Below are positions 1 through 49,644 of a stretch of 64,000 nt of DNA, in pieces. Origin of the DNA: Bugula neritina (taxonomy: Eukaryota; Animalia; Bryozoa); NCBI GenBank assembly GCA_964035545.1, contig OZ037771.1, forward strand, positions 9,603,408 to 9,667,407, read 5' to 3'. The notes beneath the pieces are model-generated. The model made no database searches and had not been told where the DNA came from. It was given only the letters and a program-made list of their open reading frames with translations. Numbering within the stretch: position 1 is the stretch's first letter; each line of letters starts with the position of its first letter. The translations under genes were made by a program, and so were the position numbers.

Positions 1-1165
1 TCATCAGCGGACCATGGGATGTCATGTTGGACATCTCTACGAAGTCGACTAACCCTCCTTCTCCCACTTTCTCGATCTCATCAGGCCATTTATCTCAGAC
101 CCGACTCGCTATGAACGGCTGCGCCAAGAGTTCCCCGCGCCCCGTGCCATCACACAAGGACCCTGCCCCAAGCCCCCCGGGGTTTAAGAAACCACACACG
201 CCCCGTCCCTCACCCCCCGCTCACACAGTGCCCCGTCCCAACTCCATACCCAGAGTCGTGCTGCAACGAATAGAAGTGCCCCAACGATGGCGACCCTCCC
301 CTCCCGTTTCCCCACGACCCTCCCGTAAACGATGTTGGCTATCTTCATCCCCCAATCGCCACTCTGCCCCCGCCCGGAACCTAAAGGAAACGGAAGATCG
401 AATACCTGAATTGGAGAGAGAAGTGCAAAGGTTGGCGCCTAGGATATCTGCCGCCGCCTCCGGGCTCTCCGCGACTCTGCGGCCCAACTGAAGAGGAATG
501 CTTAAGACAGAGTGTCTAACCCTCTCTTTTCTCTACTTGTCCTACTCCCCCGTCCCTTACTATGCCGCAGGTGGTTTCTCCCTTACAGCCTCTACCTCGT
601 GCCCCGGTGCCATAACAAATCTCCCGTTATGACAATCTGGTAGCTAGTCCATAAGTGTATATTTTTTTTAGTCGTCTGGGCCGTCAGCCTATAAGTGCCT
701 CTCAACATTAGTAACACGGCGTCGTGTTCATACTGTTTTATGTTTTTTTTGTATTTGTGTTTTTTTATGTACATACCATACGCATCTCTCTCTATTTTTA
801 TATTTTCTCTACTATTATATTTTTATTATTTTATCTGTTGTATCAGGAAGGTAGGCTTCCTGCTGGGGGGGGCGGTGTAGTGGAACACGCAATACGCGCC
901 TCCACGTGTCCCCTAGCCAATGAGAGATGCGTCAGGTGACAACCCCCAGCGATGCGTAACTAGAAAGTTGTTGTAATAGAGAGAGCGTACGAGTAACTAG
1001 TGAGGATGTAATTCATTTAATCTGTGTGTTTTCTTGTATAATTTTATTAGTATGTAACTGTAAATAAATATCTTTTAATCCTATCACAAGCCCTATATTG
1101 CTGCGGATAACTAAATCATAATTACAAGCTAGGAACCACGCATTAACACTGTGTAAATCACAACA
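1..1165 (+). mobile_element. 3' end of Ty3/Gypsy element G0: remnant of accessory ORF3, U-rich tract, hairpin, PPT, 3' LTR (876-1165); lies upstream of the first visible GEMIN8 exon, probably intronic
   Basis: G-rich PPT (865-875) then TGTAGTGG...TCACAACA. Frame 2 reads HQRTMGCHVGHLYEVD*PSFSHFLDLIRPFI, matching ORF3 of G1-G3; frame 3 gives coiled coil LKETEDRIPELEREVQRLAP. Same hairpin-PPT layout as G1-G3. Confidence 0.85.
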
Positions 1166-17872: not shown

Positions 17873-19480
17873 CGTGCGTGTGTGTATTTTATTTCATCAT
17901 AATATAGTGTTTTACAACTAGCATAAGTTACAAGAGCAGACAAACTATTAGAAAAGAAACATAGTAACAAATAACAGTATATAAAAATAAAGCTGTCGGA
18001 TGTGATGATGAGGCCCAGTGCGAAATAGCATGGCTAGTGGTACGCGGGCCCAATGTTGGCATAACCATACAAGGCACCACAGATCACTCAACAGAGTAGA
18101 GGTGATGCCTCAATTCCGTTTTAAATTTACCAAGTGGCTGTATAATCTTTAAAAATTTAGGCAACTTATTCCACAGTGCAGATATTACAAAATTGGAGGT
18201 CTGTTGACCAGCAAATGAGGAATAAAATGGAACAGGAAGAGAATGCAACTGATGACGAGTAGTATAGTGAGAGTGTGTCGAAAAGCTTCCTGAATAGTAG
18301 ATTTTATGAGCTTTAATTAGCAGTTTGTCCTTATACAACTTGTCAACTGGTAAAATGTCTGAATTCCTAAACAGGTCTTTAGAATGGTATCTAAAACGTT
18401 TGCGGTGAATTATACGGACAATTTTCTTTTGAAATTTTATCACTCTATCAAGATGGACCCTGGATGCATTCCCCCATAATTCTATAGAGTAGCACAACCT
18501 GGAATGTATAAGTGAATAGTATAACATAATCAAATTTTTTTTAGGAGCGAATGCATTTAAACAATAAAAAAGTCCCGAAATTGGTCGAAGATTTAATAAT
18601 ATTTTCTGAATGTGGGATGACCAGTTTAAATTTCTATCAATTATCACACCTGAAAATTTTACTTTGTCAACTGCTGTTATTGGTTTGCCATTTATTGTTA
18701 ATTTTAAATCAAATTGGAACCTATTTTGATAGTTCTTTAAAATAATGTAAGATGTTTTTTCATAAATAATTGTTAGCTTATTTATCTGGCACTATTTACA
18801 TAGTCTTTTAAGATCAGAAGAGATTTTCTCATATTTATTGTTTAAATTTTTGATTTTGATTGTAAACATAAACAAAGTCATCTCATTGTAATTGAAACCC
18901 TTGGAGCCACATACAATGCTGTAGATCGGATGGCACTACTTGCAGTAGCTAACTAACATACAGCTTTACAGTTACTGAGTTACTAAGATCAGCTCACATC
19001 TCGAGGGAAGTTGTACTTCTATCCATCCCAACCTAGTGGAACTATTACTAGACCGATGCCAATGATGAAGGACTACACAAGCAAAAAGCTGTAATACTAA
19101 TAGTGATATAACCAATAATAAAGATAAATCAAATGCTAATGAATAATGATCATAATATTAATAATTATAATATCATTTAAATCGATATATAATTAAATAT
19201 TCATTTTTTCATATTGATATTCATATTGATATTTAGTTTATATTATAATTATTACCTTGAACTTTGAAATTTCACGATTAAATTTTTTGTAAGTTCTAGT
19301 ACTATTACAGCACTAATAAATAGTAGTACTAGTAGTAGCACTGCCCTATGAGTATGAGTTATGACTATGAGTAGGAAAACTTACTTCGTCCTTAGGGAGG
19401 TTGGTAGGCTTTTTTCTGTTCCACTCTGCATGAAAAACACAGGTACCCAATCGATCAAATATGTAAAAATTGAAAATCAT
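8184..19480 (-). CDS. TRAPPC1: Trafficking protein particle complex subunit 1 (Bet5); exons 19480-19385, 14707-14637, 14358-14220, 8297-8184
   Basis: Joined protein MIFNFYIFDRLGTCVFHAEWNRKKPTNLPKDE-EFQNMYGMLFSLRSFVKRLSPLD-C-KDGFLNYQTSKYKLHYYEKPSGLKLVMNT...-IYVEYVVKNPLCPLNQPITSELFKDKLETFIKALPFY*; canonical GT-AG sites with consistent phases; clear TRAPPC1 motifs. Confidence 0.93.
9557..9731 (-). other. Partial direct duplicate of TRAPPC1 exon 3 with its donor and downstream intron (source 14156-14331)
   Basis: Near-identical sequence; encodes KYKLHYYETPSGLKLVMNTSTDVGDIRETLCQLYGQ; lacks the first 30 nt of the exon. Confidence 0.9.
10711..12271 (+). mobile_element. Solo LTR related to the LTRs of Gypsy G4, interrupted by a DNA transposon
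   Basis: TGTAATGGATTTCAGT...CACTACA, alignable by eye to 49645-50063; ATAC target duplication at 10707-10710 and 12272-12275. Confidence 0.92.
10847..11993. mobile_element. Non-autonomous PIF/Harbinger-type DNA transposon inside the solo LTR
   Basis: TIRs TAGCTTATTCACAC/GTGTGAATAAGCTA, TAA duplication; removal restores colinearity with the G4 LTR. Confidence 0.85.
13762..14144. mobile_element. MITE
   Basis: Imperfect ~30-bp TIRs AAGGCCTGGTCTCACGATCGTGAAAATCAC / GTGATTCTCACGATCGTGAAGCCATGCCTT flanked by TA. Confidence 0.75.
15680..19140 (+). mobile_element. Decayed RLE-type non-LTR retrotransposon (R4/Dong-like), split by a second LINE; segments ~15680-17830 and ~18880-19140
   Basis: Broken motifs PNWKSLGPD, RGTKDRLMLDKAI, GIF*GD..PLLF, INHLLYTDELKL, zinc knuckle CRVC..ET...ILSEC, RPDIVV (PD-D/E nuclease); IVIETLGA resumes after the insertion; ends in TAA-rich tail. 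Confidence 0.8.
17831..18880 (-). mobile_element. 5'-truncated CR1/L2-group LINE ending in a (CA)n microsatellite (17831-17885)
   Basis: ORF 18084-18647 (IIDRNLNWSSHI, LYYSLIHSRLCYSIELWG, QKKIVRII, LWNKLP, FKTELR) is a typical post-RT region of APE-type LINEs. Confidence 0.8.
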
Positions 19481-19979
19481 CACAAGAATACCAAATTGTT
19501 CCAAAAGATAAATATAATTCTCAAGATAGTTTACATCAATGTTATTATGCATCAGTCAAAGTGCTAAAGTTTACTCTGGTATGACCACTGAGCTGGAATA
19601 GTTGTTAATTATTGAGTTCATTGGGTATGACTATCAGTATTGTAGCCGGAGGTCCAGGTACATATTTACGCCAGAAAATAGCGTAGACGCGCAGAGTCTT
19701 AGCAGAGTGGTATATATATTAGGAGTGCCGACCTTAGGCAATCATATGGGCATCATTATGCCACAATTGGCACCGCGAGTTTATATAAGTTATAAAGTGA
19801 AAATTTTGCCACTTTGTTACCTCATTATTTTTTATTTTATGTGTACATTTTTTTAGTTTTGTTATTTGGTGAAATTTCTAAACACATTTTTATAAATATA
19901 AAATTAAAAAAAATAGCACTCATACACGTAAAAACAAAGCTATAAAGTTAAAGTTTCGCTGTGATTACTATGTGAATAT

Positions 19980-22900
19980 TGTTATGATTTTCAGAATTAG
20001 GGTTGATATGCAATCCAGATAGTCTATCTACTTGCTAGAGAACTTCACCAGGATAAGTCGAGTGAAACGAGTATATATTTTACACACAAGAACACATTAC
20101 AAAAACTATACAAATACATTCAGTAATTCTACACATTTAGATCATTCAGCACTCTAACTTCGACTAACTAACAGCGGGAAAGCTAACTACTGCTACTAAC
20201 TATCAGTGTCGCATTGTTCCGGGTCAATTACGTGACCCCATGCTGTAGTAGCGGGGAAAAATAACATTTCCCCGTGTTACGTTGCTGGTAGCTCCACGAG
20301 CCACCACACTGCCCCCACCAGCAGAAAGCCCTCTTTCTGATATAAAAAAACTTTACAATTAACTACGTACATTAGTAGACCAAAAAGAAAAAACATAATA
20401 TATATATATATATATAGATACACAATAACAGACACAATCATTATACAGCATGTCACATACAATTGGCCAGCTATAGAGAAGGAATACCGGCTAGTTGTAG
20501 TATTGGACAAGAGGTCGAGCTGTCTAGCTGTCAAGCATTTGCATGATAGTCTTGGGTCCCCCAAGAGGGTAAGGCTTGCGGATCATTCCGGGCAGCAGAA
20601 CCAGAGTCAGTGTTTGGCAAGCCGATGTTTGGCCTGGCGGGCATGTAGTTTCCTTTTAATCCGGCCAACCGAGCCTTTTAACTGATAGTCCCGTCGTGGT
20701 ACTAAGCAGATCTGGTGCTAACTGGGTGAACTCAGCCTGCAGCCGGAGGAGACATTCCTCTACAGTGGCCAGGCGAGTGGGGTCTGGGGACGGTGTCCGT
20801 CTTCGACGAGGGAGGGGACTTGGAGACCGGGTCCGCCTTCTAGTCGGAAAAGGGGAGGCTTCTCCTTCTGGATAGGTAAACTCTTCGGGGGTATACACAA
20901 TCTGAGGGCGGTCAGACACCAACGGGGATTGTTGCCTGGTATAGTCTAGTACATGTTGAAAGCCCGAAGTCAGGACGGCCAACAACATTGCCTTCTTTAC
21001 TAAGGGTCGTATCAGGGTCAGGAATTCTGGGTAGAGTTTAGCATCTACCACATAATTCTCTCCAGAGAAACAGCCCGCCGCCCGGTCTCTAGTGACGGGA
21101 TAGGGGTAGACATCATTGTATCCGCAAGGACAGAATGTGAGTAATAGGTGGGCGTTGACATGCAGCTTCAGGGAGCGGTGAGAGGCACACTCTTTGTCAC
21201 AAATCTGGCACCGCGTCCTTCCTCTGGATCCCCAGGCTGTTTCTATCTGCTCCTCCGTTTCCGGCGACACCCACCGCCAGCGGCGGCGCAGTGGCTCAGG
21301 CCGGTCACCATTGGTGTACTTCTCATGATGCGGAGCGGGAAGTGCTCTATCCCGTACCCTGGTTGTAACGGGTCGAGTGTAACCTGAAAGAGTTTCAACA
21401 GCGTTAGTATAATACACTGCAGTGTTGTCGGCTTGAACAGCCTGGCAACTTCTCGTTCAGTTAACACTCGTAGAGATTTATGGTAGTGAATAGTTGGATA
21501 GAACACGTATTGCAATGAGATTGTAAAATCTCTAAGTCAAACTGAGTTCTTACCACGGTAGTTCACTAACCTATCTCCAGCTCATTGGACTCAGTGAGTC
21601 GGAGCTGAGTGATGCAATCTAGTTTCCATATCAAGATATAGTTAACTCACCCCACGATCCGTTGTCGTAAGACATACTGAATTTGTGAAATGGTTTGGAC
21701 TATTGACTAGGAACACGTCTACTCTTGACTGCATCAGCATACAAAAAGATCGAGCAATGTGGTTGGGGTGCGTGACTAAGACTTTGCGCACCCGGCGGAT
21801 GAATTTCGTTTCTACTTCCGCCGATACAAAAGTTGATATTTCCGTGGTGTTGACAACTCCCACAATTGCTCGATACTTTTCCCGTACGGTTTTCCCCTAG
21901 ACTTTCGTACGCGCCGCTTTTAATGCAGTAACATACAAAGTCCTTTAAGTATGCGGGGGGGTTGCCTCGTACGTTGTCCCCGCTCTAGGGGAGGTGACGC
22001 ATTCGTCGGTGTACTAGTAGGGACCTCTGGTGGCGTCTCTACTTCACCGTTAGTGGTCACTTCTTCCTGTTTTCCGGATGGAGCCCCTCCCTCCGTGGGG
22101 GTTTGCATTTCCGGAAGCGGCTCGGTTTCTGGAAGTGATGGAATCAAACTTGGCGCAGGCGGTGGCGGACGCGCTTCTGCAGGCAAAAGCGGTCGCTCCT
22201 CTCTCACCAAGTCTTCTTCCCGCCGAATGACCATTTCAAATTCAGGTCCATGCCGCCGTCGCCCGCGCGTTGTCGTCTGCCTCCTGGGCTCCAACAGCGG
22301 GGGGCTTCTCCCACTGCATCCGAGCTAGCCCAATACGGCTTCAAGCGAGCCTCATTCTGGATAGACACGTGTCCTGAGCGCTCGATCTTGTTGTATGGTT
22401 GGGCATAGCCTCGATGATCACGTAGAGTCCCACGAACTTAGGCTGTAACTTAGCCGCCTGTCCGCGACGCCTACGGTAATTGACCATCCACACCCTATCT
22501 CCCGTCTGGTAGAGAGGTGGTTCCTCGGAATCTTCCTGTCGCACCTTCCACTACTGTTCGCGCAGTATTTCATGTGCGACCTTCATTCGTTCCACTGGCA
22601 TACTTGTGAACCGAGTTGTCTTGCTCTGGAACGTGGTAGGTGAGATGGTCAGGGACACGAGTCTCTCTCCCAAGCATCAAGAGGTTTGGGGTCTCACCAG
22701 TACTGGTGTGTGGGGTGCTACGGTATGCGCGTATGACTTGCGGCAACACCGTGTCCCATTCCTCCTGACTGCGTCCGAAGAGAAAACTCCGGAGCGCATC
22801 ACCTAGCATCCGGTTATTGCGCTCCACCACCCTGTTACCCTGGGGATGGTAAGGGGTGGTCCTGCTCTGATTTACTCCCCAGAGGCGGCAAAAGTCGCTC

Positions 22901-25900
22901 ATCAGTTGGGACTAAAACTGAGCGCCTTTGTCAGAGTGTATCTGTTCGGGGAGCCCGAAATAACAGAATACATGTTGGTCTAGCGCCCTGGCCACTGTTG
23001 GGGCTGACGCATCTGGGATAGCCAGAGCGTCCGCCCACCTAGTAAAGTGGTCAGTCAGTACTAAGATCCAACTATTGCCTCTTAGGGTCAGCGGCATGGG
23101 TCTGACCAGGTCAACAGCTACTACTTGCCACGGCCTGCCAGCATATAACCTCCGCCGTCCCGCTTCACCAGGGAGACGGCCATGGTTGCTGGCCTGGCAG
23201 ATTTCACACTGTTTTACTCTGAGCCGGACATATCGCCCTATTTTGGGCCAATACCACCGGAGTTGTAATTTAGAGATCACTATCTTGACCCCTGTGTGGG
23301 CCTGCTTGTGAGTGTCCCAGATTAACTCACGGCGTATGGCGCTGGGGCAAACCACCTTCTTCCTCTCCGGGTGTCTGCCGTTGGCAGCTAGAGAAATGGT
23401 CAGTAGACCATCTTGCCCGATCCTCAGCGAGTCCCAACACTGGCAGAGTAGCCGGAACTTGGCGCATCCCTGCCGTATGCGTTCCTCGCTGGGTCGTCGT
23501 CCTTCCTTTTTGACCCGATATATGTCTGCCACTACCCCAGGCAGCTCTTCCTGGAGCTTCTTCAGCTTCCGGACATATCAGCCAAAACAGGATTGGCGCG
23601 GAGGTTTTGTACAACCTCCGGGGACTCGTCAACCTCCTGCCTGGGTTGACCTTGGTCCTAATCAAACTGTGCTCCGTGGTGAGCCAGTGTCTCTAGTTCA
23701 CATCACGGGGGACCTCCGTCCCATCTCTCGATGTTGAGACACTGTTTGCAACCTCCATCGGGTCGGCGGCTCAAACCATCCGCATTGCTGTGTATCTTGC
23801 CCGGTCGATGTTCAATCCGGTACGAGAACTCAGCTAGGATTTTGAGCCACCGGGCGACCTGACTGGAGGGTTCCGCTCTCTTGCACAACCAGATCAGAGA
23901 GGCATGGTCCGTACGCAGCCGGAACTTCCTGCCGTACAGGTATGGTCTGAAGTGCTTTACTGACTTGATTACTGCCAGCAGTTCCTTGCGGGTAGTGCAG
24001 TAATTTTGTTCAGTGGGTGAGAGAGACTTACTGTAGTAAGCTACTACTACCTCTCGGCCTTCCTGCACTTAAGACAGCACAGCGCCAACGTTCTGGTCAC
24101 TGGCATCAGTGTCGAGGATGTACTCCAGATTGGGGTCTGGGTAGGCCAAGATGGGTGCCGTCAGTAGGCAACCCTTGAGGCAGTCAAACGCTCCTTGTTC
24201 GACCAGGGTCCACTGCCACGTCACTCCCTTTGCGATGAGCCGGTTTAACGGCTGTGCTATGCTCGTAAAGTCTGGTATGTATTGCCTGTAATACCCTACC
24301 AGCCCCAAGAAAGCCCGAAGTCCGGTCAAGTCTTGGGAGGTGACCGAGTCTTCTATCGCCCGTACCTTTTCAGGATCCGTTGCCACGCCGTTTCGACCGA
24401 CAACGTGCCCCAGGTACTTGACCTTCGGCTGCAATAGAGCGCACTTAGAAGGTTTGAGCTTAAGACCAGCACCTCGGACTCTCTCGAAGACCTCCCGCAG
24501 ACGACTGGTGTGTGTCTCGAAGTCTGGGGAAATCACGATGACATCATCGAGGTAGATCGGCAGTGTCTTCCAATTGAGCTCGCTGAGGACTTGCTCCATC
24601 AGCCTCTGGAAGGTGGCTGGGGCGGAAGTTAATCCGAAAGGCAGCACCTTCCACTTCCACAAACCATCCCGTGTGATAAGCGCCGCCTTCTCCTGGGCGT
24701 CGGGACTCAGAGGAACTTGCCAGTAGCCGCTCAACAAGTCTAGCGTACTGAAGTACTTACTGCCGGCTAAGGCGTCCATTGACTCGTCAATAGGAGGTAG
24801 AGGGTAGGCGTCCTGTATGGTTACCCTATTGAGCTTGCGGTAATCCACACAAAACCGCCGACTGCCGTCTCTCTTCCGGACCAGTACGACCGGCGAGCTC
24901 CACGCACTATGGGTGGGCTCTATGAGGCCGCGGTTCAGAAAATCCCGGACTTGTCGGCTGACCTCCTTCTCTTTCTTCGGCCCCAGCCTGCGCGTGGGTT
25001 GCCGGATAGAGACCGTTCCTGCAGTCAGCGGTATTTCGTGTCTGACAACTCCAGTCAGTCTCACGTCATTATCTCCGCTGCTGAACACATCACCGTAGTC
25101 GCGTAGCAACTTCGCCATAGCTTGGCGTTCCTTGTTGCTTGCGCAGCCACCACAGGCTGTTTCATATAACTCCCGGATGTGTGTTGAGACCGTCCCTCGC
25201 CCCTGAGTAGGGCGCCGAAGGGGTGCCTCCGTCGCATCACCCAGCGACCGGCCAACGTCCTCCTCCTGGACAGAGTGGAACCAGATCAGCATTGACCCAG
25301 CTGGGAGCTTGATGGGCTCGGTAAAGAGGTTGACACACTGCACTAAGATCTCCCCTGCTCAGTCAGCTGGTTCAAACTGCTGGCGAGTTGGATCCTTTCG
25401 TGCACACCTTCAACTACCCCGAGTCCAGAGATCCGGCTATTGTTCACTCTGCAGTGAATGGTAGCCCGGGAGCGGCCTAGCACAGTACAGTTTTGTACCA
25501 CCTGCACGCCTCCCACCAAGGGGCGGCCGAACTTGTCGATGCAGGCGAGTTCTCGCCCGGACATCACCATCGCAGATTTACTAAAATTGATGTGACATCC
25601 GTGCCGTTTCAGGAATGGCATCCCGAGGATGGCGTCCTCCTTGAGCTGACTGACGATAAACGTCTCTTAGATCGTTTGATCACGGACGTGTCTCGTCAGC
25701 TCAATTATATCGTAGGAGGGAAGAAACGACCCGTCAGCCAGGGTGCCATACTCCCCCTCGTTTGGTTCCATCTCGTCTCTGACCCTAGCACTGAGGGTGT
25801 CGAAGAGTTGGCGACTTATGAGGTTCATGGTACAGCCCGAATCGATTAGGAAAGTAACAGCTTTGCCTTCCAATTTGCCGGGCAAGAAATAGCTGTTTCC

Positions 25901-26588
25901 ATAGGGCTGCACCTGAACTCTCCCTTCGTGCTTTGCTCTCGCAGGGAGTACCTCCCTCGCTTTAGGTCGCGAAGGAGGTCGCTTGGGATGGTGGTAAGTT
26001 GGCCTCGGAGGTGCAGAGGCTAGATTTCCGGCTACCTTCGCTGGCTCCCATCCAGTTTCTTGGGCCGGTAGCTCGTCGAATCGATTGTGGAGGGGCATAG
26101 AGAAGGTAGTGGCGGGGCGGGGCTTCTTGCTGGTCCGTCGTGGCTGTTGCCACCCTCGGTTGTCAGCATGCGGTACCCTTCTGGGTGACGTACGTTTTTT
26201 CTTCCCTGGGGGTTTCATCGTCGGCCCGCAGGAGGTGGGAACATCTGCGGGCCGCGGTAGTTTAACCCTGGAGTTAGGAAGAGACAGCACCTGCGGAAGT
26301 GTCCTTGTTTCCGCATTCCCAGCAAAAACTGACCGTTTCCCCCGGTGGCGGCGCCGGTGGCCGTACTGGCTCAGAGGCGCTACCTACTGGGGTTTGGGAT
26401 GTCAGTGTTGCTATCAGTTTGGCCAGCATGTCGGTCAGTTGAGTGACTTTCGATGCTGCCGCTAACTGGGCCACGGCAGCCGTCGCGGAGGTTTCCTCCT
26501 CTCGCACCGCTCCCGTGTCCGCGTGGTCAACCTCCACTTGACGGGAGTTCCCGCGACTTTTATGCATCTGGTTTGCCAGGAGATAAGC
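19980..26588 (-). mobile_element. Ty3/Gypsy element G1: truncated gag, PR-RT-RH-IN pol (stops/frameshifts; ends 21700), spliced ORF3, 3' LTR ~20308-19980; 5' LTR lost
   Basis: FLIDSG protease, YLDD RT, DTDASD RNase H, H2C2 and rve integrase, FVGLY (GPY/F) motif; hairpin+PPT 20309-20339. Left LTR boundary inferred from TG...CA only. Confidence 0.93.
20607..21675 (-). pseudogene. G1 accessory ORF3, two coding exons (21675-21651, 21383-20607): C2H2 zinc finger / RS-like tract / coiled coil; one late frameshift
   Basis: ATG TCT TAC GAC AAC GGA TCG TGG G|GTGAGT; branch TACTAAC; CTCTTTCAG|GT TAC in phase; CQICDKECASHRSLKLHVNAH. Confidence 0.8.
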
Positions 26589-26603
26589 TACGATCGTGCA
26601 GGA

Positions 26604-29600
26604 GTAGAGCTACGATCGTGACGACAAAGGGGGTAATATTATTTCCCTTCTAAATGCAGCACGGAGTCACCAAGTGTATTAAGAAGATGACCCGAGACAG
26701 CAATCTGCCAATAGGAATCATGAACTATAATTAGGAACTGTGACTTCCCGCGTAACAGTTATTTAGGAATAGACTGGCAAACTGTAAGCACTGTGCTGAG
26801 TAGTTGTTGATGTGTTCATAGATTTAGTTTTTGGATTGTGTATTAGCATATGAATATATTATTGTAACCTGAACCTTACTTGCGGAGTTGATTTAGCTTA
26901 CGTGTTATGAAGTAACTTGATTGCACACTAAAACCCACAATACTGAAAAAAGATAACGGTGGTGGCAGCGGTGGGATAGTTGTGTATATCAACGATGGAG
27001 ACTGACGATGCTGGAACACCACCACAGCCAATAGAAGGTGAGCGTGGAGATAATTTAGTTCCTGTGAATCGTGTAGTAGAAGATCGAAGAGCTCCGAGGG
27101 AGTTGAATGAGGATCGATACCGGTTAAAGGCACCCACTTTCACAGGTGAAGAAGTGGAACAATTCATACAGGAATTTAGTGACGTGTTGGACATCACTTA
27201 ATGGCCACCTAGGGTGGCCCTGCTGAAGCTTAGAATGTCATTGATGGATAAGGTCAAGCCCTATGGGTTAGGACAGGACATCGACAGTATCTTTGCTTCT
27301 CTGCAGGCCCGTTTTGGCATCTCCGCCATAAACGCCCGGGCCCGACTACAAAGGCTGCGGCGTGATCCACACACCCCGCTACAAAAACATGCCGCTACAG
27401 TGATGACGCTGGCGCAGATTGCATACAGTGATCTGCTTCAAGCTAACCGTGAACGGTGTACTTTTGACGCTTTGTACAATCTATCAACGACTTGGGACTC
27501 CATCACCAATTTCTGGCCAGGGGCGTTACCACAGTCGAAAGCGCCCTTGCAGAAGGGGAGGCCTATCTTCTGGCAAAACAGATGCATAAGAACAGCGGGG
27601 TTTCCCGCCAGGTGGAAGTAGAGTCAGCGGTCACCCCAGCCGATCTAGAGGCGGAACCCTCCGCGACCGCTGCTGGACAGTTAGTTGCTGTATCGAAGGT
27701 CGCACAACTGACCGACATGTTGGCTAAACTGGTGACGACACTGACACACAAAACCTCGGTAGGTACCGCTCGCGAGCCCCCACGGCCACTGGCGCCACCA
27801 CCACGGGAAGCAGTCAGTTTTTGCTGGGAATGTCGAAATCTACATTTCCGTAAATACTGCCCCCCTTCTTGCTCCGGGGTTAAACTACCGCGGCCCGCAG
27901 ATGTTCTCGCCTCCTGCAGGTCGGCAATGAATTTTCCAGGGAAGAAGAAACGTAGGTCACCCAGATGGGTACCGCGTGCCAACAACCAGGAGTGGCATAA
28001 GCCACAGCGGACAGGTAAGGGGCACCACCTCGCTGTTACCTTCTCCATGCCATTCCACATTAGAATTGACGGGCTGCCGACCCAAGAATCGGAGTGGAGA
28101 CCAGTACAGGCGTCAGAAAGCCCGCCTCTCCCCTTCGAGGTCACCTTACAACCGTCCCAAATGACTACCTCCCCGACCCACAGCGAGAAAGGTGCTCCCT
28201 GCAAGAGTACGGCCCGAAGAAAGAGTACGGGTGCAACACCATGGGCACAGCTATTTCTTACTCGGCAAGATAGCGGGTAAAGCTGTTACCTTCCTGCTCA
28301 ATTCGGGCTGCACCACGAACCTCATAAGGCGCCAACTCTTCGACACCCTTGGCGCTAGGGTCCGAAGCGAGATGGCACCATACGACGGGGAGAATGGCAC
28401 CCTGGCAGACGGGTTGTGCATTCTTTTCTATGGTATAATTGAGCTGACGGGACGCGTCCAAGATCAAGCTATCCAAGAGACGTTTATCGTCAGTCAGCTC
28501 AAAAAGAATACTATTTTCGGGATGCCGTTTCTGAAACGGCACGGATGTCACATGGACCTCACTAAGTCTGCAATAGTGATGTCCGGGCGAGAACTAGCCT
28601 GTGTCGATAAGTTCAGCCATCCTCTAGTTGGAAGCGTGCAGGTAGTACGGAACTGTAAAATACCGTGCCGCTCCCGGGCTACTATTTACTGCAGAGTGAA
28701 TAATAGCCAGACATCCATGAAAGGGTGGTGGAAGGTGCGCACGATAGAATCCAACTCGCCAGTAGCCTAAATCAGCTGACTGTGTGAGGAAAGATCTTAG
28801 TGCGGTGCGTCAACCCTTTTTTACGGAGCCGGTGAAGCTACCTGCAGGGTCCATGTTGAGCCGTTTCCACTCTGGCCAGAAAAAGGACGTGGGACCGTCG
28901 TTGGGGGACACGGTAGAAGGTCCCCAACAGCGCCTGCAAAAAGATTGGGGACCGTCCGGAAACGCATCCAGGGGTTGTATGAGATGGCCTGTGACGGCTG
29001 TGCGAGCAACGAGGAACGCCAGGCTATGACGAGGTTGCTACGCGAATATGGTGATGTGTTCAGCAGCGGAGACCATGACGTGGGGCTGAAATGAGCTGTC
29101 AGACACGAGATACCGCTGGCTGCAGGAACAGTTCCTATTCGGCAACCCACATGCAGGTTGGGGCCGGAGAAAGAGAAGGAGGTCAGCCGACAAGTCCGGG
29201 ATCTTCTGGACCGCGGCCTCATAGAGCCAGCCCATAGCGCATGGAGCTCAGCGGTGGTTTTGCTCTGGAAGAAAGACAGAAGTTGGCGGTTCTGTGTGGA
29301 TTACTGCAAGCTCAATAGCGTGACCATACAGGACGCCAACCGTCTACTTTGTATTGATGAATTCTTGGACGCCCTAGCCGGCAGCAAGTACGTCAGTAGG
29401 TAAGACTTGTTGGGCGGTTACTCGCAGGCCCCTCTGAGTCCCGACGTCCAGGAGAAGGCGACGTTGATCACACGGGACAGACTGTGGAAGTTGAAGGTGC
29501 TGCCGTTTGGGTTGACTTCTGCCCCGGCCACCTTCTAGAGGCTGATGGAGCAAGTCTTGAGTGGACTTCACTGGAAGACACTGCTGATCTACCTTGATGG

Positions 29601-31879
29601 CGTCAAGACACGTCAGTTGTCTGAGGGAGATATTCCAAAGACTCAAAGGTGCTGGTCTGAAGCTGAAACCTTCCAAGTGCGCTCTGTTGCAGCCGGAGGT
29701 TAGGTACCTAGGGCACTTTGTCGGTTAAAACGGCGTAGCAACGGATCCTCAGAAGGTACAGGCTATAGAAGACTGATCATTCTCCAGGATTTGACCGGAC
29801 TCCGGGCTTTCTTGGGTCTGGTAGGGTATTACAGGCAATACATACCAGACTTTGCGGGGATAGCACAGCCGTTAAATCAGCTCACCACAAAGGGGGTGGC
29901 ATGGCAGTGGACACCGCTCAAACAACAGGCATTCGATTGCCTCAAGGATTTCCTAATGACGGCACCCTTCTTGGCCCAGTCAGAAAATTCCGGCTGCTTA
30001 CGGATCATGCCTCCTTGATTTGGTTGTGTAAGAGAACAGAATCATCCAGTCAGGTCGCCCGGTGGCTTGAAGTCCTAGCCGACTTCTCTTACTGGATGGA
30101 ACATTGACCGGGTAAGAGGCACAGCAATGCGGATGGTTTGAGCTGGCGGCCTGATGGAGGTTGTAAACAGTGTCTCAACATCGAGAAGAAGGATGGAGGT
30201 CCCCCACGATCTGAGTTAGAGACACTAGCTCACCACGGAGCATAGTTTGACTGGGACCAAGGTCATCTCAAGCAGACAGTTGACAAATACTCGAAGGTTG
30301 TACAAAACCTCCACGCCAATCCTGTTTTGGCCAATAATGTCCGGGAGCTGAGGAAGCTTCAGGAAAACTTGCCCGGGGTGGTGGCAGACGCGTATCAGGC
30401 CAAAAAGAACGGGCGACGACCCAGCGATGAACAACTGAGACAGGAATGCGCCAAGTTCGGGCTGTTTTGCCAGCGTTGGGACTCCCTGAGGATCGGGCAG
30501 GATGGTCTGCTGACCATTACTCTAGCCGCCTCACCCATAGAGGAAGAAGCAAATGGCAGACTACCAGGACTACTGCGCCGCCGTTGGCGGTGGGTGTCAC
30601 CGGCAATAGAGAAGAAAATAGAGGCTGCGTAGGGGCCGAAGGGAAGTACCCAATGTCAAATCTGCTACGAAGACAGGCTGTCTCACCGCTCCCTAAGACT
30701 GCACGTAGATGCACACTTTCTATTGACCTTCTGCCCATGCGGACATCACGATGTCTACCCATACCCGATCATTAAACATAGAGCTGCTGGATGCTATCAC
30801 AGGGAGAACTATGTCATGAATGCCGACATGTATCCAGACTTCCTAACGCTCATCCGGTCACTAGTAAAGAAGGCAATGGTGCTAACCGTCTTGATCTCTG
30901 GATTTCAGCATGTACTAAGTATGCCCGGCAGCAGTTTTCCATAGTAGCAGACACTCCTAATGAACCAACCTCCGCGGAGATGGAAGAAGAGTTAAAATTC
31001 CCTCGCCGGAAGGCTATGACACCACCACCAGACCGCCCAACCCGTCTGGCCACCGTAGAGGAGTGACTCCTTCGGTTACAGGCCGACTTCACGCATCTAG
31101 CCCCAGATTTGTTAAACACAACGACTGGGCTGTACCAGCTTAAGGGCTTGGTGGGAAGAATAAAACGGAGACTGTGTGCCCGCCAGGCTAAGCATGACAA
31201 TGACAATGACAATAGTCTTCGTCCATGGGACATATCTGTGAATCTCGTCCTTTCTGGGGATTCCCGATGACAAACATTATGATCACGTAAATGCCTGTTA
31301 CTTCCTCTTCCTTGGATACCACTATAGTTAGCACTATTTCTCTTTCTATAGCTGATCAATTGTGGCTACCTTGTTCTTGGTGTAATGATTATGCTTTTGT
31401 CGTCATTTATGTATATATGTATATTATATTATGTAACTGCTTTTATAATATTCTGTATTTTGCGAGGGAGTGTATTTTTTATCAGAAAGTGGGCTTTCTG
31501 CTGGTGGAGGCGAAGTGGTGGCTCGTAGAGCTACGATCATGATGACGAAGGGAGAAATAATAATTCCCTTCTAAAAACAGCACGGAGTCACTAAGTGTAA
31601 TAAGAAGATGACCCGAGACAGCAATCTGCCAATAGGAATCATGAACTAAAATTAGGAACTGTGACTTCCCGCGTAACAGTTAGTTAGAAATAGACTGGCA
31701 AACTGTAAGCACCTTTTCTGAGTAGTTGTTGATGTGTTAATAGATGTAGTTTTTACATTGTGTATTATCGTATAAATATATTATTGTAACCTGAACCTTA
31801 CTTGTGGAGTTGATTTAGCTTCCGTGTTATGAAGTAACTTGATTGCACACTAAGACCCACAATATTGAAAAAGATAACA
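26604..31879 (+). mobile_element. Ty3/Gypsy element G2 (same lineage as G1): LTRs 26604-26958 (5'-clipped) and 31514-31879; decayed gag-pol with deletions in RNase H and of the whole integrase; ORF3 remnant ~30531-31270
   Basis: Matching LTR pair, tRNA-Leu PBS, LKAPTFTGE gag, RT motifs, CQICYEDRLSHRSLRLHVDAH. Confidence 0.93.
26960..26977 (+). promoter_or_regulatory. Primer-binding site, tRNA-Leu (also 33652-33669 and 50065-50084)
   Basis: TGGTGGCAGCGGTGGGAT is complementary to the 3' end of metazoan tRNA-Leu(AAG/TAG) ...AUCCCACCGCUGCCA-CCA; lies 1 nt after each 5' LTR. Confidence 0.9.
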
Positions 31880-33299: not shown

Positions 33300-34581
33300 T
33301 GTAGTGAGTCATGCAATGTACTAATATAAGAATCGTCCTCTTTCCGTTCGGGGAAAACTAAGGCCCCAATGTATTAGTCAATAAGAAGAACCGGAATATG
33401 TACTTCCGACCCATGTGACAGTTCCCGGGCAATTAGCAATTATCAGGTTGTTGTAAGCGAGGGCTTGAAGTGTAAACACGCATTAGTAGTGACTGATGTT
33501 GTATTGTAATTTGATGTAATGTTTGTTTTGTATTGTATTGTGGATAATAAAGGTAATGACTCGACAGCTACCCTAGTAATTGCTAGTAGAATAGCCTACT
33601 AAATACGCAAGTAAAAAAACTCACGCACAGTAATTGCACAAATTACTACAGTGGTGGCAGCGGTGGGATCTTGCGTATAACAGTCAAGGCAGAAGACGGT
33701 ACGGAGCTACCCATTCCACTGAATGAAGGTGAGGAAGATAATGTTGATATAACTGTGGAACCAGTAGTGTTAGAAGAAGTGAGAGTTCCTAGAGAGTCCG
33801 GTGAGGACAGATACCAGCTGAAGGCGCCCACCTTCACAGGCGAGGAAGCCGTAGAGCAATTTATCCAGGAATTCCAAGATGTGATGGAAGTTGCACGGTG
33901 GCCACCAAGGGTGGCGTTGCTCAAACTCAGGATGGCGCTGACAGACAAGGCTAAGCCCTACGGAACGGGACCTGATATAGACGAGATCTTCGCTTCTCTG
34001 CGGGCCCGTTTTGGTATCTCTGCCATAGATGCGCGGGCCCGCCTACAAAGGCTGCAGCATGATCCTCACACGCCGCTGCAGGAGCACGCTACCACGGTGA
34101 TGACGCTGGCGCAAATCGCGTTTCGCGATCTGCCTCAAGCGAACCGTGAGAGGTATACTTATGATGCCTTCGTGCAGTCCATCAACGACTTGGGGCTCCA
34201 CCATCAATTCCAAGCGCGGGGAGTCGCCACGGTCGAGGATGCACTCGCGGTAGGAGAAGCCTACCTCTTGGCGACTCATATGCACTGCAACCGCGTGGCC
34301 TTACACCAGGTGGCCACGGAGCACACTACTGCTCATACTGAACCAAATGCAGAACCCTCCGCGTTGGCTAATGTGACCCAGATGACGGTAGCATCGAAAG
34401 TCGCTCAGATGACTGACATGCTAGCCAAACTGGTCGCCACGTTAGCTCCCCCAAGCCAGGTAGATACTGCCCGTGAGCCTCGCGGGCTGCAGGCACAATC
34501 ACCAGGCACGAGGCATAACTTCTGCTGGGGATGCGGAAGGCTTGGAAATTTCCAGAAGAACTGCCCTCAACTCCAACAAGG

Positions 34582-34625
34582 GTTAAACTACCACGGCCCG
34601 CAGATGTTCCCACCTCCTGCGGGCC
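34582..34625 (+). promoter_or_regulatory. Predicted -1 ribosomal frameshift signal at the gag/pol junction
   Basis: G_TTA_AAC in gag phase, 6-nt spacer, 9-bp stem GGCCCGCAG/CTGCGGGCC with 13-nt loop; pol frame is -1; repeated in G1, G2, G4. Confidence 0.8.
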
Positions 34626-37024
34626 ACCGGTAAATCATCCAGAGAGGACAACGCGTCTGCCACCCCCCTGGGCGCCACGCGAGGATACTGTGGAGTGGCG
34701 ACCACTACGGCAAGTAGGCTGTTCAAGCCACTCGCCACCTGGGTTCTCTATGCCACTCCGAAACAGATCCGACGGGCTGTTGACCTCAGAGCCTGCGAGG
34801 GAAACGGTACAGGCGCCGCAAGGCGTACCACCCCAACCTCGGCAGCTGGTCATTAGTCGTCGCCAACCATGGACCCTCGACCCACAGCGAGGGAGGTGCA
34901 ACCACGGCACACACAAATGCAGCCACACGGGAGTAGCTACTTCCTGCCAGGAAAGCTAGCTGGCAAGCCTGCCAACTTCCTTCTGGACTCGGGCTGCACC
35001 ACCAACCTCTTTAGCCGTCAATTCTTTGACACCCTCAGCGCTAAGGTCAGGGACGGGCTGGCACTGTATGAGGGGGATCATGGCACCCTGGCAGACGGGT
35101 CGTGCATTCCCTTCTACGGCATTTTTGAGCTTACTGGGTGCGTTCGTAACCAGACCATCTAGGAGACGTTTATCGTCGGACAGCTCAACGAGGATGCTAT
35201 CCTCGGGATGCCATTCTTACAAGGACACAGATGTCGCATCAATTTCAGCAAATCTGCAATGATCATGGGCGACAGGGAGCTTGCCTGTGTCAATAAGTTT
35301 GGTCGTCTTCTAGTGGGAGGAGTGCAGGTCGTACGGAGCTGTACGATACCAGGCCACTCCCGGGCTACCGTCCGCTGCAAAGTAGACGGTGGCCAGACCT
35401 CTAGGTTGGAAGTTGTCAAAAGTTTGCACTCAAGAATCAAACTTGCCCACAGCTTTAGCCGGCTTACAGGACACGGAGAGATCTTGGTGCAGTGCGTCAA
35501 CCCCTCCTCAGAGACGGTGGACCTGCCATCCAGGTCCATGCTGGGCCGCTTCCATCCTGTCTAGGAGGAAGACATTGGGCCGTTGTTGAGAGCTACGACG
35601 GAAGGTCCTCAACAGAGCCCGTCTCAAGGGCGGAGGACCGTCCCAACCCACGCCTCCCATTCTCCAGGGACGCGTGGCTACGCGGGCAACAGAAGGCGCC
35701 ATGCCATGGCCAGGTTGTCACGCCGGTACAGTAAGGCACCCCGCCACACAGACCATGACGCCCGCCTAAATAGAGCGGCCTATCGTGAGGTACCACGGGC
35801 GGCGGAGACCACCCCTACTCGGCAGCCCACGACGAGGTTGGGCCCGAAGAAGAAGAACAAAGTTCCCCCGCGGTCCCCGCTGGCAAAACGGGACTCGGGC
35901 CAACTCCAACAGAGGGCTGACACGCCCCCGAAGGCCGTCCAGAGCCTCCGCGCCAAACCTGTATGGGCTGGTAACGTTGGGGAGCTACCGAAACTCTAGG
36001 AAAACCTTCCTGGAGTGGTAGCCGACGAGTACCGAGTGAAACAGGAAGGGCAACGACCCAGTGGTAGACAACGGAGACAGGGATGCGCCGAGTTACGGCT
36101 GTACTGTCAACGTTGGAACTCTTTGCGGATCGGGCCGGATGGTCTGCTGACCATGACTTTGGCCGCCAACAGCAGACAACCAGCAAGGGAGAGGATAATT
36201 TGCCCAGCTGCCATTTGCCGGAAGTTGATACAGGACACCCACCAGCAGACTGACGCAGGAGTCCAGGGGGTGGTCACCAAGCTACAACTCCGGTGGTACT
36301 GGCCCAACATAGAGCGGGACATCCAGCGCAGAGTGAAACAGTGCGAAATCTGCCAGACCAACAAGCATAGCCGTCTCCCCGGTGAAGCGGGACTGCAGGC
36401 GCATTGTGCTAGAGGGTCTTGGCAAGCGGAGACTGACGTCCTGGCCGGAAACACGCCCATGACCCCGCAGGAAGACTTGGCGAGGCAGGAAAGACCACTT
36501 CCGTCCTTGGAAGGGCGCCCACCGCCCCCAACGTCAGGCCTGCTACCACCACCACTTCCGGAACCAGAAACGGGTCCGGAAGTGCAAAAACCCCCTGTGG
36601 GAAAGGCTCCGTACGGAGGTACCAACGTAGGAACAACCGTCACAAACAGGCTGGAAACACCACCCATGAGACATAACAATCTACGGGTGAGCACACCGCC
36701 TCCTACAGTGATGACACCTTCAGGACCACACACTAGGCAACCCCCAGCGTACCTCGGAGACTTCATACATGACCGCGCTAGAAGCGGCAGTTATGAAAGT
36801 CTGGCGAGGTTTCGTATGGGAAAACAGGCAAAGAAACGTGGGAGTTGTGAACACCACGGAAATATCAACTTTTGCCTTGGCGGAACCACGAATGAGATTC
36901 ATCCGCTGGAAGTAAAAAGCCCTTGTCACGCTTCACAACCACGCTGCCCGGTCTTTTCCTACGTTGATGCAGTCAAGAGTAGACGTGCCACTAAACACTA
37001 ATCATTTACCGCTCTCATTCCAAA

Positions 37025-38010
37025 ATGTCTTACTATTCTGGATCGAAGGGTGAGTTAGTTATGTTTTTAGTACAGGAACTAGACTGCATCAGTCAGCTCT
37101 AGCTATGCCAGTTAGCGAGCTGGAGATTCGATAATGAAACACAGTGGTGGGAACACACGTCGACTTAGATTTTAAATAATCTGCCATAGCGAGTGTGTTC
37201 TCGATCAACTATTCTTTAGCCTGAATCTCACGAGTGTAACTGAACAGAGCACCTGTCAGGCTGTACATGCCGGCGATACTTTAGTGTATAGTCTTTAACA
37301 CTGCTACTCTTTCAGATAACACTCGAGTGACCACCTCCCGGTCACGGGACCAGCCAACCCCTCTACCCATGGAGGAAGAACTAGTGATGGAAAGGAGGAT
37401 TGAAAAAGCCTGGGGACCCAGCGGACCCCACCAGACCTGTCAGGTCTGCCTTGAGGAGTACCCGTCACACCGCTCCCTGCATCTGCATGTAGACGCACAC
37501 TTTCTACTGCACTTTTGTCCATGCAGGTTCCATGATGTGTACCCGTACCCCGTGATAATCCACAAGATGAACTGCTTTGCCGAAGAGGGCCATATCGTAG
37601 ACAAGGACAGTTTCCCCCAGTATCTAGACATCATCAAGCCGGTCATCAAGAAGGCTATAACCCTGGCTGCGCTAGCGTCAGGGTTCTAAGTACTACTGCT
37701 GTCTGCCCGCCATAAGTCTCCTATGGTTAAGGTCCCGTCCACTACCCCCGTCAACCCTAGTAACACTCCCGAACCAGAAGAAGTGACGATACCCTCTACC
37801 CAAGAAACTACAACAACCCTGCCAGGACCCAGCCGATTTGCTACTGTAGAAGAGCGGCTTTTAAAACTACAAGCCGAGTTTACACAACTTGCTCTTGACC
37901 TGCTGGATACAACAACATGTCTATACCAGCTGAAGGACTCAGTGGGGCAACTGAAGCAGAGGCTACGTGCCTGACAAGCTCAGCACAGATCGCGCTCACT
38001 ACAAGAGTGA
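37025..38010 (+). pseudogene. G3 accessory ORF3, two coding exons (37025-37049, 37316-38010); two premature stops
   Basis: ATG TCT TAC TAT TCT GGA TCG AAG G|GTGAGT ... CTCTTTCAG|AT AAC in phase; CQVCLEEYPSHRSLHLHVDAH; RFATVEERLLKLQAEFTQLA; stops at 37687 and 37972 where other copies have Q and R. Confidence 0.8.
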
Positions 38011-38764
38011 GAGCTCACCTAATAAGCATGCCTGTGAAAGGCACCTTTCGGCGGACTGCATTATCGTCGCGTAGATGACCAGCTCCCCCGACCATTGGCC
38101 CGCGTGCTGTATAGCACCCTCTCTCTCTCTCTGTAGCTGACCAACTGTGTGTTTGACCACTCTGTTTACCTTCTTGTATATATATGCTTGTGTGTACTAA
38201 AATATTTCTCTTCTTTCTTTTTGTGGGTTTAATTATGTATCTTTTAGATTATTGTACTGTTTTTATATGTATTTTTTTGTGTGTTCTCAGAAAGTAGGGC
38301 TTTCTGCTGGGGGGGGGCGGTGTAGTGGGTCACGAAATGTTTGAGGAATACTAAGGTCTTAATGTATTAGCCAATAAGAAGAACCGGAATATGTACTTCC
38401 GACTTATGTGACAGTTCCCGGGCAATTGACAATGATCACGTTGTTGTAAGCGAGGGCTTGAAGTAGAAACATGTGTTAGTAGTGACTGATATTATAGTGT
38501 AATTTGATGTAATGTTTGTTTTGTATTGTATTGTGAATAATAAAGGTAATTACTCGACAGCTACCCTAGTAATTGCAAGTAGAATAGCCAACTAAATACG
38601 CAAGTAGAAAACTCACGCACAGTAATTGCACAAATTACTACACTATGACGCAGTTTCGTAGCTTTTTAATTAGCTAAGTTGGTGTAAAAATGCTAAAGCA
38701 GTTTAGTGATGTCAAGTGTAAAAATTTTATCTATCCTCAATGCTAAATGCAAATGAAAAAATCT

Positions 38765-39790
38765 TGTGACACCCATTTTAGTCATTCTGGACTAAAATTG
38801 GTGTCGCGAATATTTTTAGTTTTATTTTCACATTTTGCAGAAATTTTTGTTTGTTAATATTGCTCAAAACGTTTTTAATAGTTTAAAGTATATTATGTTT
38901 CATAAGTTAGCATGTCTATGATCATAACGATAACAGTAAAATTAAGTGAAAATTAAATTTTTGATGAGGAAAAATAACTCTTTATAAGTTTGTTTTTTGT
39001 TAAAATTAATTTAATATAATCATTATTTATTTATGTTTTTGGTTTAAACAATTGTGAAATGTTCATTATTTACTGAAGAGTCATTTAACAATAATCTAAA
39101 CAGTCACAACTGTCTAAAAATCTGAAAATAAAATGAAAATTGTTCGCGACACCTATTTTAGTCAAAACCCCCCCCTTATGACTAAATTGGGTGTCACGGA
39201 CCGCGACACCCGGTGGCCACCCATTTTAGTCACACCCGTTACAGTATGTTTCAATATGCTACAGTGTTTTTCAGTATATTTCAGTATGTTTCCGTATATT
39301 TTGGTATGTTGCAGTTTATTTTGGTACGTTGCAGTTTATTTCAGTATGTTGCAGTATAATTCAGTATGTTTCAGTATATTTCAGTGTGTTACAGTCTATT
39401 TCAATATACTACAGTATATTTCAGGATGTTACAGTATATTTCGCTATGTTGTAGCATATTTTGGTATGTTACAGTATATTTCAGTATGTCGCCGTATATA
39501 CTTCAATATGTTGCAGTATATTCCAGTGTGTTACAGTATATTACAGCATGTCACAGTATATTTCAGTATGTTACAGTATATTTCAGTATGTTACGGTATA
39601 TTTCAGTGTATAAAAGTATATTACAGTGTGTTACAGTATATTTGAGTATCTTACAGTATGTTTCGATATGCTACAGTATTTTTCAGTATATTTCATTATG
39701 TTACCGTATATTTCAGTATGTTATACAGTATATTTCAGTATTTTACAGTATATTTCAGTATGTTACGGTATATTTTGGTATGTTACAGTG
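38765..39790. repeat. Unclassified repeat: GACACCCATTTTAGTCA motifs in both orientations, then a ~20-bp minisatellite (TGTTACAGTATATTTCAGTA)n at ~39237-39790
   Basis: Directly visible; the ORFs 39133-39917 are repeat artefacts. Confidence 0.8.
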
Positions 39791-40240
39791 TACCGGCTGC
39801 CTCAGTTTATTTATAACAGGTGGCACTGCTGGAATTATCCTGATGTTTATTGAAACTACTGGTAACCAACGTGAAACTACAATAATAAAATTTAATAATA
39901 GAGATATTGATGAATAAAAAATTAAACATAAAACATTACAAAAATTGTTGCATAACATTAACAATGGTCAACATACCTCTATTACCCTTCCTAGGGGGAG
40001 TTAGAATTAAATATATAAATTTGTGATAGTGAAAGTTCAATCAAAAATCAAAAATGACTAGTGAGAATTTCAACAGTCAGTGGAGAAAAGCATCAGACTT
40101 TGGAATGGAAGCATAAAACACCTCAGCTATTATAATTCCTGGCTACAAGCTATACAAAGCTGACAGCTATTATGTTAGCAAAAATCATTGCATTGTATAA
40201 TAGTGAAAACAAAGCTATTTGTGGTCTAAAAAAAGCTGTG

Positions 40241-48784: not shown

Positions 48785-49644
48785 TTTGTGGATGGTACAG
48801 GTGTGGTTGGAAGAATACGAGAGTGCATGATATTTTTAGTCAGACGCTGAGGTGTGTGAATGATTGGTTGAGGTGGCGTAGCTGGTGTGATGGATGGCAA
48901 CTGATTTAGAAGTGAAGAAGAGCTGTCCTTCTTTTCCTCTTCTTCAATGGCTTGGGCTATGACTTGCTCTTCAGCCTCCGCTGCGTGCATTTCAGCCTGA
49001 AGCTCTTGCTGCTTGACAGCGTTTGTAAGTTGACTAGCTTGCTGTCGTAACTCATGAATTATATTGGCAGATTCTAATTTTTTTCTTAGTGCGGCTGCTT
49101 TAGCTGTGGATTACACCTGCATTAATCTGAGCTGTGACTGTGAACTAGCACGAAATGAGTGATAAGATGAAGCCGGTTTTGAACTTACAAAATGACTAGC
49201 GGATTCTAAGATCTCAAAGCGCTGAATTTCTTGTGCTGGCTTGAAGCCAGCAGTTTTTGTTTTGGTTGAAAGTTTACTCATTCGATCTATGACATCACCA
49301 ATCAATGTTTCACAATCAGAATGCGATCTATCCATTTGATTTCGGACTCGAAGATCTGGCTCATGATCTCCTAGCATGAGGCGCCACTCATCATAGGTTC
49401 CTTTTAAATTGTGTTTAGCTTGGGATAGTTGGTTTTTATAACCTTCGAATGAGTCGTACGAAATATCCTGTTTTGATGCAAAGTGAGAACATATAGATTT
49501 GTGTCACTCAGCACAGTTTGTGATTTCATTGTCTAGTTGTGTAGCTTTCTGATTAATTTTTGTTCTTAAAGATGTATGGGATTTTGAGGCATTTGATTCA
49601 GACATCACTTATTTAGGTATGAAAGCGTAGCAATCACAAAGAAT

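Follow-up and report, generated by a model that had tools for sequence, protein, structure and literature searches.

A stretch of 64,000 nucleotides from the bryozoan Bugula neritina (the window, meaning the whole stretch of DNA that was analysed) contains Gypsy-type elements in which an additional open reading frame, ORF3, follows pol. The locus raises the question of what this gene encodes, how it is expressed, and why the elements keep within it an intron that is dispensable to gag-pol.

The elements and their third open reading frame

Five Gypsy-type elements lie in the window: G0 (3' end only), G1 (minus strand), G2, G3 and G4 (49645-57199). Paired LTRs are 90-97% alike, a primer site and purine tract are common to the elements, and the pol order in a Pfam scan is RVT_1, RT_RNaseH_2, Integrase_H2C2, rve, SH3_Tf2-1. 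By their LTRs, primer site, polypurine tract and PR-RT-RH-IN order, the elements are Ty3/Gypsy LTR retrotransposons. The shared primer binding site, at 33651-33670, 26957-26976 and 50064-50083 of the window, presumably fits the 3' end of tRNA-Leu. The features referred to below, with SD1 and SD2 denoting the donors at the gag start and in the internal exon respectively, are:

1..491, plus strand: 3' part of G0 ORF3, a distant subtype, followed by a polypurine tract and an LTR from 876
19971..20325, minus strand: G1 polypurine tract and 3' LTR (LTR 20308-19971)
20607..21383, minus strand: G1 ORF3 exon 2, with tandem finger domain, Arg/Ser-Pro linker and C-terminal helix; phase 1; frame break near 20686
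21384..21650, minus strand: G1 intron, 267 nt, GT..AG, donor GTGAGT at 21650, 3' end CTCTTTCAG; conserved, weakly structured
21651..21675, minus strand: G1 internal exon, 25 nt, with ATG (21675), ending at donor SD2; 24 nt past the pol stop
21700..26588, minus strand: end of G1 gag, followed by pol with protease, RT, RNase H, integrase and a conserved C-terminal tail; truncated at the 5' end beside the G2 LTR
26995..27037, plus strand: G2 gag-start leader, 14 codons and 1 nt, then donor GTGAG (SD1, phase 1)
30531..31270, plus strand: G2 ORF3 remnant fused to integrase; stops, frame break
33300..38642, plus strand: whole G3; LTRs 33300-33650 and 38321-38642; 4-bp target duplication; large pol deletions
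33686..33728, plus strand: G3 leader at the gag start, with donor SD1 (GT at 33729); the N-terminus of homologue P0024 matches it
37025..37049, plus strand: G3 internal exon with ATG, ending at donor SD2; 23 nt past the pol stop
37050..37315, plus strand: G3 intron, 266 nt
37316..38010, plus strand: G3 ORF3 exon 2; two in-frame stops, internal deletion

As originally predicted, a homologous ORF3 sits between pol and the polypurine tract in G0 to G3; profile searches match the G1, G2 and G3 copies at iE <1e-60, and the G0 copy, matched at iE 4e-14 with a wide profile, is 87% identical over 60 aa to a family member (P0114). The profile search of the window found no ORF3 homologue in G4. In G1 and G3 the exon of 25 nt, the donor, the intron of 267 or 266 nt and the phase 1 acceptor lie where they had been placed, and an ATG-exon-donor pattern built from these two elements matches only those two places in the 64 kb.

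ORF3 is defective or cut in all four window copies, so that an intact product is visible in none. In addition to its frame break, G1 is missing the His of the second finger; the G0 copy has a frameshift and is truncated at the edge of the window; and in G2 a deletion at 30530 removed exon 1, the intron and the acceptor, leaving a remnant with two stops and a frame break. A reading of the G2 deletion as a splice product was rejected because the deletion misses the acceptor position. A separate deletion at the head-to-head junction of G1 and G2 (26588-26604) took the 5' part of G1 together with the first bases of the G2 LTR.

With G1 exon 2 as the query, 52 proteins of 44-89% identity were found among 2080 candidates, none of them named or Pfam-labelled, and many are open to a common C-terminus, i.e. 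intact. Of 10 close clusters looked up, none carries an organism name. Between the window copies, ORF3 has a pS of 0.72-0.81, which is near saturation, and a pN of 0.18-0.35. The resulting dN/dS is about 0.09-0.15 where computable, i.e. not near 1, with bootstrap upper bounds reaching 0.40 at most (60-367 of 500 replicates remained once the saturated ones had been discarded). This was the check proposed for the gene at the outset, and ORF3 is a real gene under purifying selection. Between G1 and G2 the synonymous divergence is far higher in ORF3 (pS 0.73) than in integrase (pS 0.29, 64 codons), which suggests that ORF3 modules have been exchanged between subfamilies. No ORF3 relative was confirmed among 122 and 165 pattern matches in metagenome contigs, or among 58 in viral contigs.

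The surroundings of the elements are rich in other repeats. Decayed ORFs at 41700-49500 (minus strand) resemble a BEL/Pao-type retrotransposon in motifs assigned by eye, and an ORF at 18084-18791 (minus strand) looks, again by eye, like the C-terminal portion of the reverse transcriptase of a LINE. A satellite of 128-bp period and a 10/20-bp minisatellite occupy 58064-64000 and 39194-39792, and solo copies of the G4 LTR are found at 10711-12249. Long inverted repeats of 93-97% identity (32119-32826/40415-41123 and 9886-10468/13202-13693) are possibly DNA transposon ends; the first pair flanks G3 on both sides.

The finger domain and its host relatives

The ORF3 protein, about 250-280 aa long, is made up of an N-terminal finger domain, a Pro/Ser linker and a long predicted C-terminal helix. 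The domain reads W-x-S-x2-T, CxxC-x12-H-x3-H-x5-CxC-x12-H, a further Cys and V-D, with a 12/5/12 finger spacing in 99 of 125 extracted domains; the second finger is therefore CxC-x12-H, and not the x11 form first given. The classical C2H2 ligands (CxxC-x12-H-x3-H) are near invariant in the 125 domains, a set that was selected by that pattern, and the first finger is of the classical C2H2 type with a beta-beta-alpha fold. The pair as a whole does not match a TGEKP-type tandem array, having a 5-residue linker, a second finger of the form CxC-x12-H..C and a conserved W-x-S-x2-T before it. Of the layout predicted for the whole lineage, the fingers and the helical tail held, but the Arg/Ser-Pro tract is confined to G1 and G0, and what G0 shows of the finger domain is just its tail.

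An Env identity for ORF3 was rejected, as there is no signal peptide or membrane segment. The hydropathy peak stays below 1.6 in 22 of 23 proteins, with the remaining one reaching 1.80 in a stretch that holds three basic residues, and Pfam scans detect no Env family, in agreement with the original prediction.

The domain model built from 99 sequences is confident (pLDDT 83), whilst an earlier structure model placed the long C-terminal helix at low confidence. The structural comparison called for at the outset gave no Foldseek match at E <=0.001 for two ORF3 models and nothing at Z >=5 in a wide search with the domain model. The best matches are weak, namely Kaiso (Z 4.0, rmsd 3.4, 59 aligned), SALL4 (Z 3.8) and the finger region of ARS2 (Z 3.6, rmsd 7.9); all have Z <=4.0, and most are DNA-binding tandem fingers. 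In profile comparison the domain matches SALL3 at E 3e-6, and most domain members fall below Pfam cut-offs. No described family in Pfam, PDB or Atlas matches ORF3; Atlas matches for the G1 protein are all under 0.9, and those for the host domain are unlabelled clusters at 0.95, which serve as leads only.

The tandem finger domain is not confined to the elements, and the idea of an element-only gene was in this respect mistaken. When 1.84 billion representatives were searched with a profile, 129 hits were obtained, many of them limited to the N-terminal 125 residues, and 4 of the 20 distant clusters looked up have organism-named members, two from Watersipora subatra (XP_067940964.1, XP_067944745.1) and two from Bugula neritina (KAF6040922.1, KAF6040923.1). 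These uncharacterised host proteins have the same tandem finger domain as ORF3 and, in most cases, a helical C-terminus; they differ from it in being longer, and some contain two copies of the domain or an extra N-terminal domain. The extra N-terminal domain is common to three annotated bryozoan genes across two genera: it is shared by P0215 and P0216 of Bugula (EB796_000764 and EB796_000763, which have neighbouring locus tags) and P0132 of Watersipora. Since the finger domain is found in annotated genes of bryozoans, and three of these genes have this further domain in common across genera, a host family carrying it probably exists.

XP_067940964.1 is the nearest named host protein, its domain being 34% identical to that of G1. 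A quick tree built from 65 domains gives the close ORF3 group a support of 99, and a wider group that includes the G0 type (support 94) is sister to this Watersipora protein; the root is arbitrary. The domain was probably exchanged long ago between elements and bryozoan hosts, in either direction, and is a candidate for capture or domestication.

The existence of host genes with the domain, together with the broken state of every window copy, would fit a piece of host sequence that was captured recently and is kept as a passenger, with incidental splice sites. This account is very improbable: even the nearest named host protein reaches just 34% identity in the domain, the element subtypes are deeply different, and the splice traces described below both fall on canonical sites in the right phase. 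Recent passenger capture was rejected, being largely refuted by an ORF3 dN/dS far below 1.

Host relatives common to Watersipora and Bugula bear on a further possibility, that ORF3 counters host silencing, either by stripping repressive chromatin from its own family or as a decoy of related host zinc-finger proteins. Such a role could also accommodate the suggested exchange of ORF3 modules between G1 and G2, and we consider it unlikely: selection on the gene is strongly purifying with no sign of positive selection, the conserved intron would be left unexplained, and no resemblance to any known anti-silencing protein was found.

Proposed splice routes and the conserved intron

Two independent sequence traces bear on how ORF3 is expressed. 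The first comes from run X2, in which one of the eight joints listed at G3 skips 266 bases with GT..AG ends, corresponding exactly to the predicted G3 intron. The joint rests on one contig of depth 843, with a short side of 28 bases, undefined letters in between and likeness set to 80%, and belongs to a class of joints that calls for caution. The X2 run is probably genomic DNA, since the depths of its long contigs lie around 50 and 100. If so, the joint would represent intron-less genomic copies, i.e. reverse-transcribed spliced RNA. No intron-skipping X2 joint was seen at G1 among the 15 joints listed of 18, and run X1, guessed to be RNA, has no joint at the G1 or G3 intron.

The second trace is a homologue, P0024, one of 208 proteins inspected and known as a protein only, which opens with 14 residues matching the start of Gag and continues with exon 2. 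Residues 2-14 are identical to the G3 Gag start at 11 of 13 positions (the score is 58, a value that none of 300 shuffles came near, the highest being 42), and the similarity ends at a G|GTGAG donor at 33728/9 (SD1), 43 nt into gag and in the phase 1 that the ORF3 acceptor needs. With residues 1-62 of P0024 as the query there were 8 matches among 9 candidates, and no second form with a Gag leader. P0024 and the presence of the donor in both G2 and G3 point to a subgenomic splice from the gag start to ORF3, as for env genes. The splicing that had been predicted for ORF3 gains support from the contig that skips the G3 intron, but the prediction had missed the donor at the gag start. Taken together, the two traces are consistent with ORF3 being spliced to one acceptor from two donors, SD1 at the gag start and SD2 in the internal exon, and the evidence for its splicing is good but indirect.

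The Gag residues at the start of P0024 would also fit a product acting in the particle or at integration, as a target-site tether or RNA chaperone detached from integrase or Gag. The internal ATG of G1 is in the pol frame after one stop, as such an appendage might be, and P0197 may join the integrase tail and the domain in one frame, a weak match (E 0.086) that is not significant. Yet the ATG of G3 is outside the pol frame, and separate splice routes argue for independent regulation; we regard a particle role as improbable.

The 25-nt exon was originally taken to be coding, a status that its substitutions do not support: G1 and G3 are identical at 18 of 25 nt, and all seven differences, which fall in three codons, change the residue. 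The peptide it would encode starts none of the 208 proteins inspected. Given these two observations, what is conserved in the exon may be the nucleic acid and not the peptide.

Upstream of it, at 21700-21940 (minus strand) and 36760-37001, pol extends beyond the Pro-rich tail of integrase and includes a conserved segment that has a Cys/His motif (pN 0.26, pS 0.49), to which no family could be assigned. The pol tail also holds a conserved pyrimidine run with CAG, at 21730 (minus strand) and 36971. This is a candidate further acceptor, with which the 25-nt exon could be the last part of a larger internal exon.

The intron is better conserved than its surroundings. G1 and G3 differ at 0.25 of aligned positions in the intron, compared with 0.47-0.49 at the synonymous sites in integrase and in the pol tail and, under the same aligner, 38% in the 3' untranslated part. 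Its low distance was reached in 0 of 200 simulations at a true divergence of 47% and in 1 of 200 at 35%. All 12 of the G3 indels listed (from 19) fall inside the intron, and a coding intron was rejected in view of the many single-base indels. Both introns fold better than shuffled sequences (z -2.55 for G1 and -2.35 for G3; 3 and 4 of 200); one hairpin is common to them and the predicted structures otherwise differ, two sequences being too few to show covariation. Rfam contains nothing that matches either intron, and its five sub-threshold microRNA matches lie elsewhere. The acceptor alone accounts for part of the conservation, at the 3' end, and the remainder suggests a regulatory element. 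Retention of the intron needs selection in cis, because its removal leaves gag-pol intact.

Candidate roles and known systems

The reading that we favour, tentatively, is that ORF3 is a regulator resembling Rev and CERV that aids nuclear exit or packaging of unspliced element RNA. By default, the LTR transcript would be spliced to give ORF3 protein, which would enter the nucleus via Arg/Lys patches, oligomerise through its C-terminal helix and bind the conserved 266-nt intron, held only by unspliced RNA. Its finger domain would be the one for which an ancient exchange with a zinc-finger family of bryozoan hosts is probable. Binding would favour the intron-bearing gag-pol RNA and so account for the upkeep of an intron that gag-pol can dispense with.

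According to the available part of the Cer1 report (PMC10309623), CERV of C. elegans is nuclear and needed to export unspliced RNA. As with ORF3, it is a non-Env ORF lying after pol and before the 3' LTR of a Gypsy/Ty3 element, and its spliced mRNA begins in the gag frame, as ORF3 does in the P0024 form. CERV is described there as a protein of 517 aa from five exons, with a C4 loop and a G-like domain and no homologue reported outside nematodes; in common with ORF3 and its zinc fingers, it has a Cys-rich putative zinc site. Compared by description only, ORF3 differs in its length of about 250-280 aa, its C2H2 plus CxC-H-C pair and its second, internal donor (PMC10309623). No nematode name was found among 30 clusters looked up from the 129 profile hits and 52 close hits. 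Retroviral Rev, as outlined in the same excerpt (PMC10309623), is a regulator made from spliced RNA and has basic patches, as proposed for ORF3, and acts with a conserved folded sequence present only in unspliced RNA, for which the intron is a candidate counterpart; in ORF3, for its part, no conserved export motif was found, zinc fingers stand in place of an Arg-rich helix, and RNA binding is putative.

Against the favoured role stand the weak fold matches, mostly to DNA-binding tandem fingers, and the export motif: a leucine-rich pattern is present in 15 of 23 proteins, its position varying and mostly falling within the folded domain, and none is conserved. Moreover, X2 being DNA would mean that there are some copies without the intron, in which case copying would not absolutely require it. 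A bolder form of the idea, in which a bryozoan Gypsy lineage independently built a Rev/response-element system from a host tandem zinc-finger protein, two splice routes and an intron licensing both export and packaging, we hold to be doubtful.

The fold matches lend themselves to a different view, which we rate as possible rather than probable: ORF3 would bind DNA and act as a transactivator in the manner of foamy-virus Tas, being produced early, from an internal promoter located within the pol tail, via the 25-nt exon and the intron. It would switch on the LTR or the internal promoter, and the intron would be conserved as a DNA regulatory sequence. This is consistent with the tandem C2H2-like pair, the Pro/Ser/acidic linker and helical tail seen in transcription factors, the resemblance of host relatives to nuclear factors, and the internal exon with its own ATG, which requires an upstream start or acceptor. 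Internal promoters are known for foamy tas/bet and for the env of Oikopleura Tor in the portions available of PMC12789967 and PMC4402516. Foamy Tas, as presented in the former, is also an accessory regulator at the 3' end of its element, as ORF3 is, and has a parallel in the possible second internal start; but a foamy virus is a retrovirus with env, unlike the ORF3 elements, whose internal promoter is hypothetical (PMC12789967). The fold matches themselves reach only Z <=4.0, P0024 points to an LTR-driven route, and the G1 and G3 LTRs barely align while their fingers are about 50% identical, so that a common LTR target is not evident.

The export reading would gain its interest from how rarely such systems have been met. 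The balance of spliced and unspliced RNA in envelope-less LTR retrotransposons is largely an open question, and Cer1 CERV is the only dedicated export protein of a Gypsy element in the literature searched. If true, the reading would place the feedback switch of complex retroviruses inside an envelope-less retrotransposon and provide a second, apparently unrelated solution in another phylum, so that complex-retrovirus regulation would arise repeatedly. The compact layout, one small intron and one protein of about 260 aa, makes the proposal directly testable.

A spliced non-Env regulator in a Gypsy element is nevertheless already known from Cer1 CERV, in the part of that report available (PMC10309623), and ORF3 would be a variant of this arrangement. 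The claim of an undescribed family stands in so far as Pfam, PDB, Atlas and the open-access literature yielded no description of ORF3, which is apparently a new accessory gene; it gives way in that CERV and the non-Env ORF3s of bdelloid rotifers (PMC5408684) are precedents. In the excerpts available, the rotifer ORF3s (PMC5408684) and the additional ORFs of plants (PMC7264820) are, as here, captured downstream of pol and ahead of the 3' LTR, but comprise esterases, exonucleases, coiled-coil and membrane proteins and antisense ORFs, unlike a zinc-finger ORF3; the word "zinc" is missing from both texts. The term "zinc finger" is missing likewise from a survey of metazoan errantiviruses (PMC13524379) and a bryozoan genome paper (PMC13326412). 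The ORF3 finger domain is described in none of the rotifer, plant, MDG1, Tor and foamy-virus excerpts.

Two further systems resemble ORF3 in part. The env of Oikopleura Tor3a is spliced from a donor near the gag start, as proposed for ORF3 with its upstream acceptor, whereas the ORF3 product is without the signal peptide or membrane segment of Env (available part of PMC4402516). The sORF1 of Drosophila MDG1/412 is, in the available part of PMC11952523, a small nuclear accessory protein of a Gypsy-type element, like the ORF3 proposed here, and differs in lying upstream of gag, being unspliced and having a predicted helix-turn-helix. Within the window, G4 may contain a different accessory gene at 55515-56780, where a donor-like site (55726) and an acceptor-like site (55965) are followed by a short, decayed Cys-rich frame.
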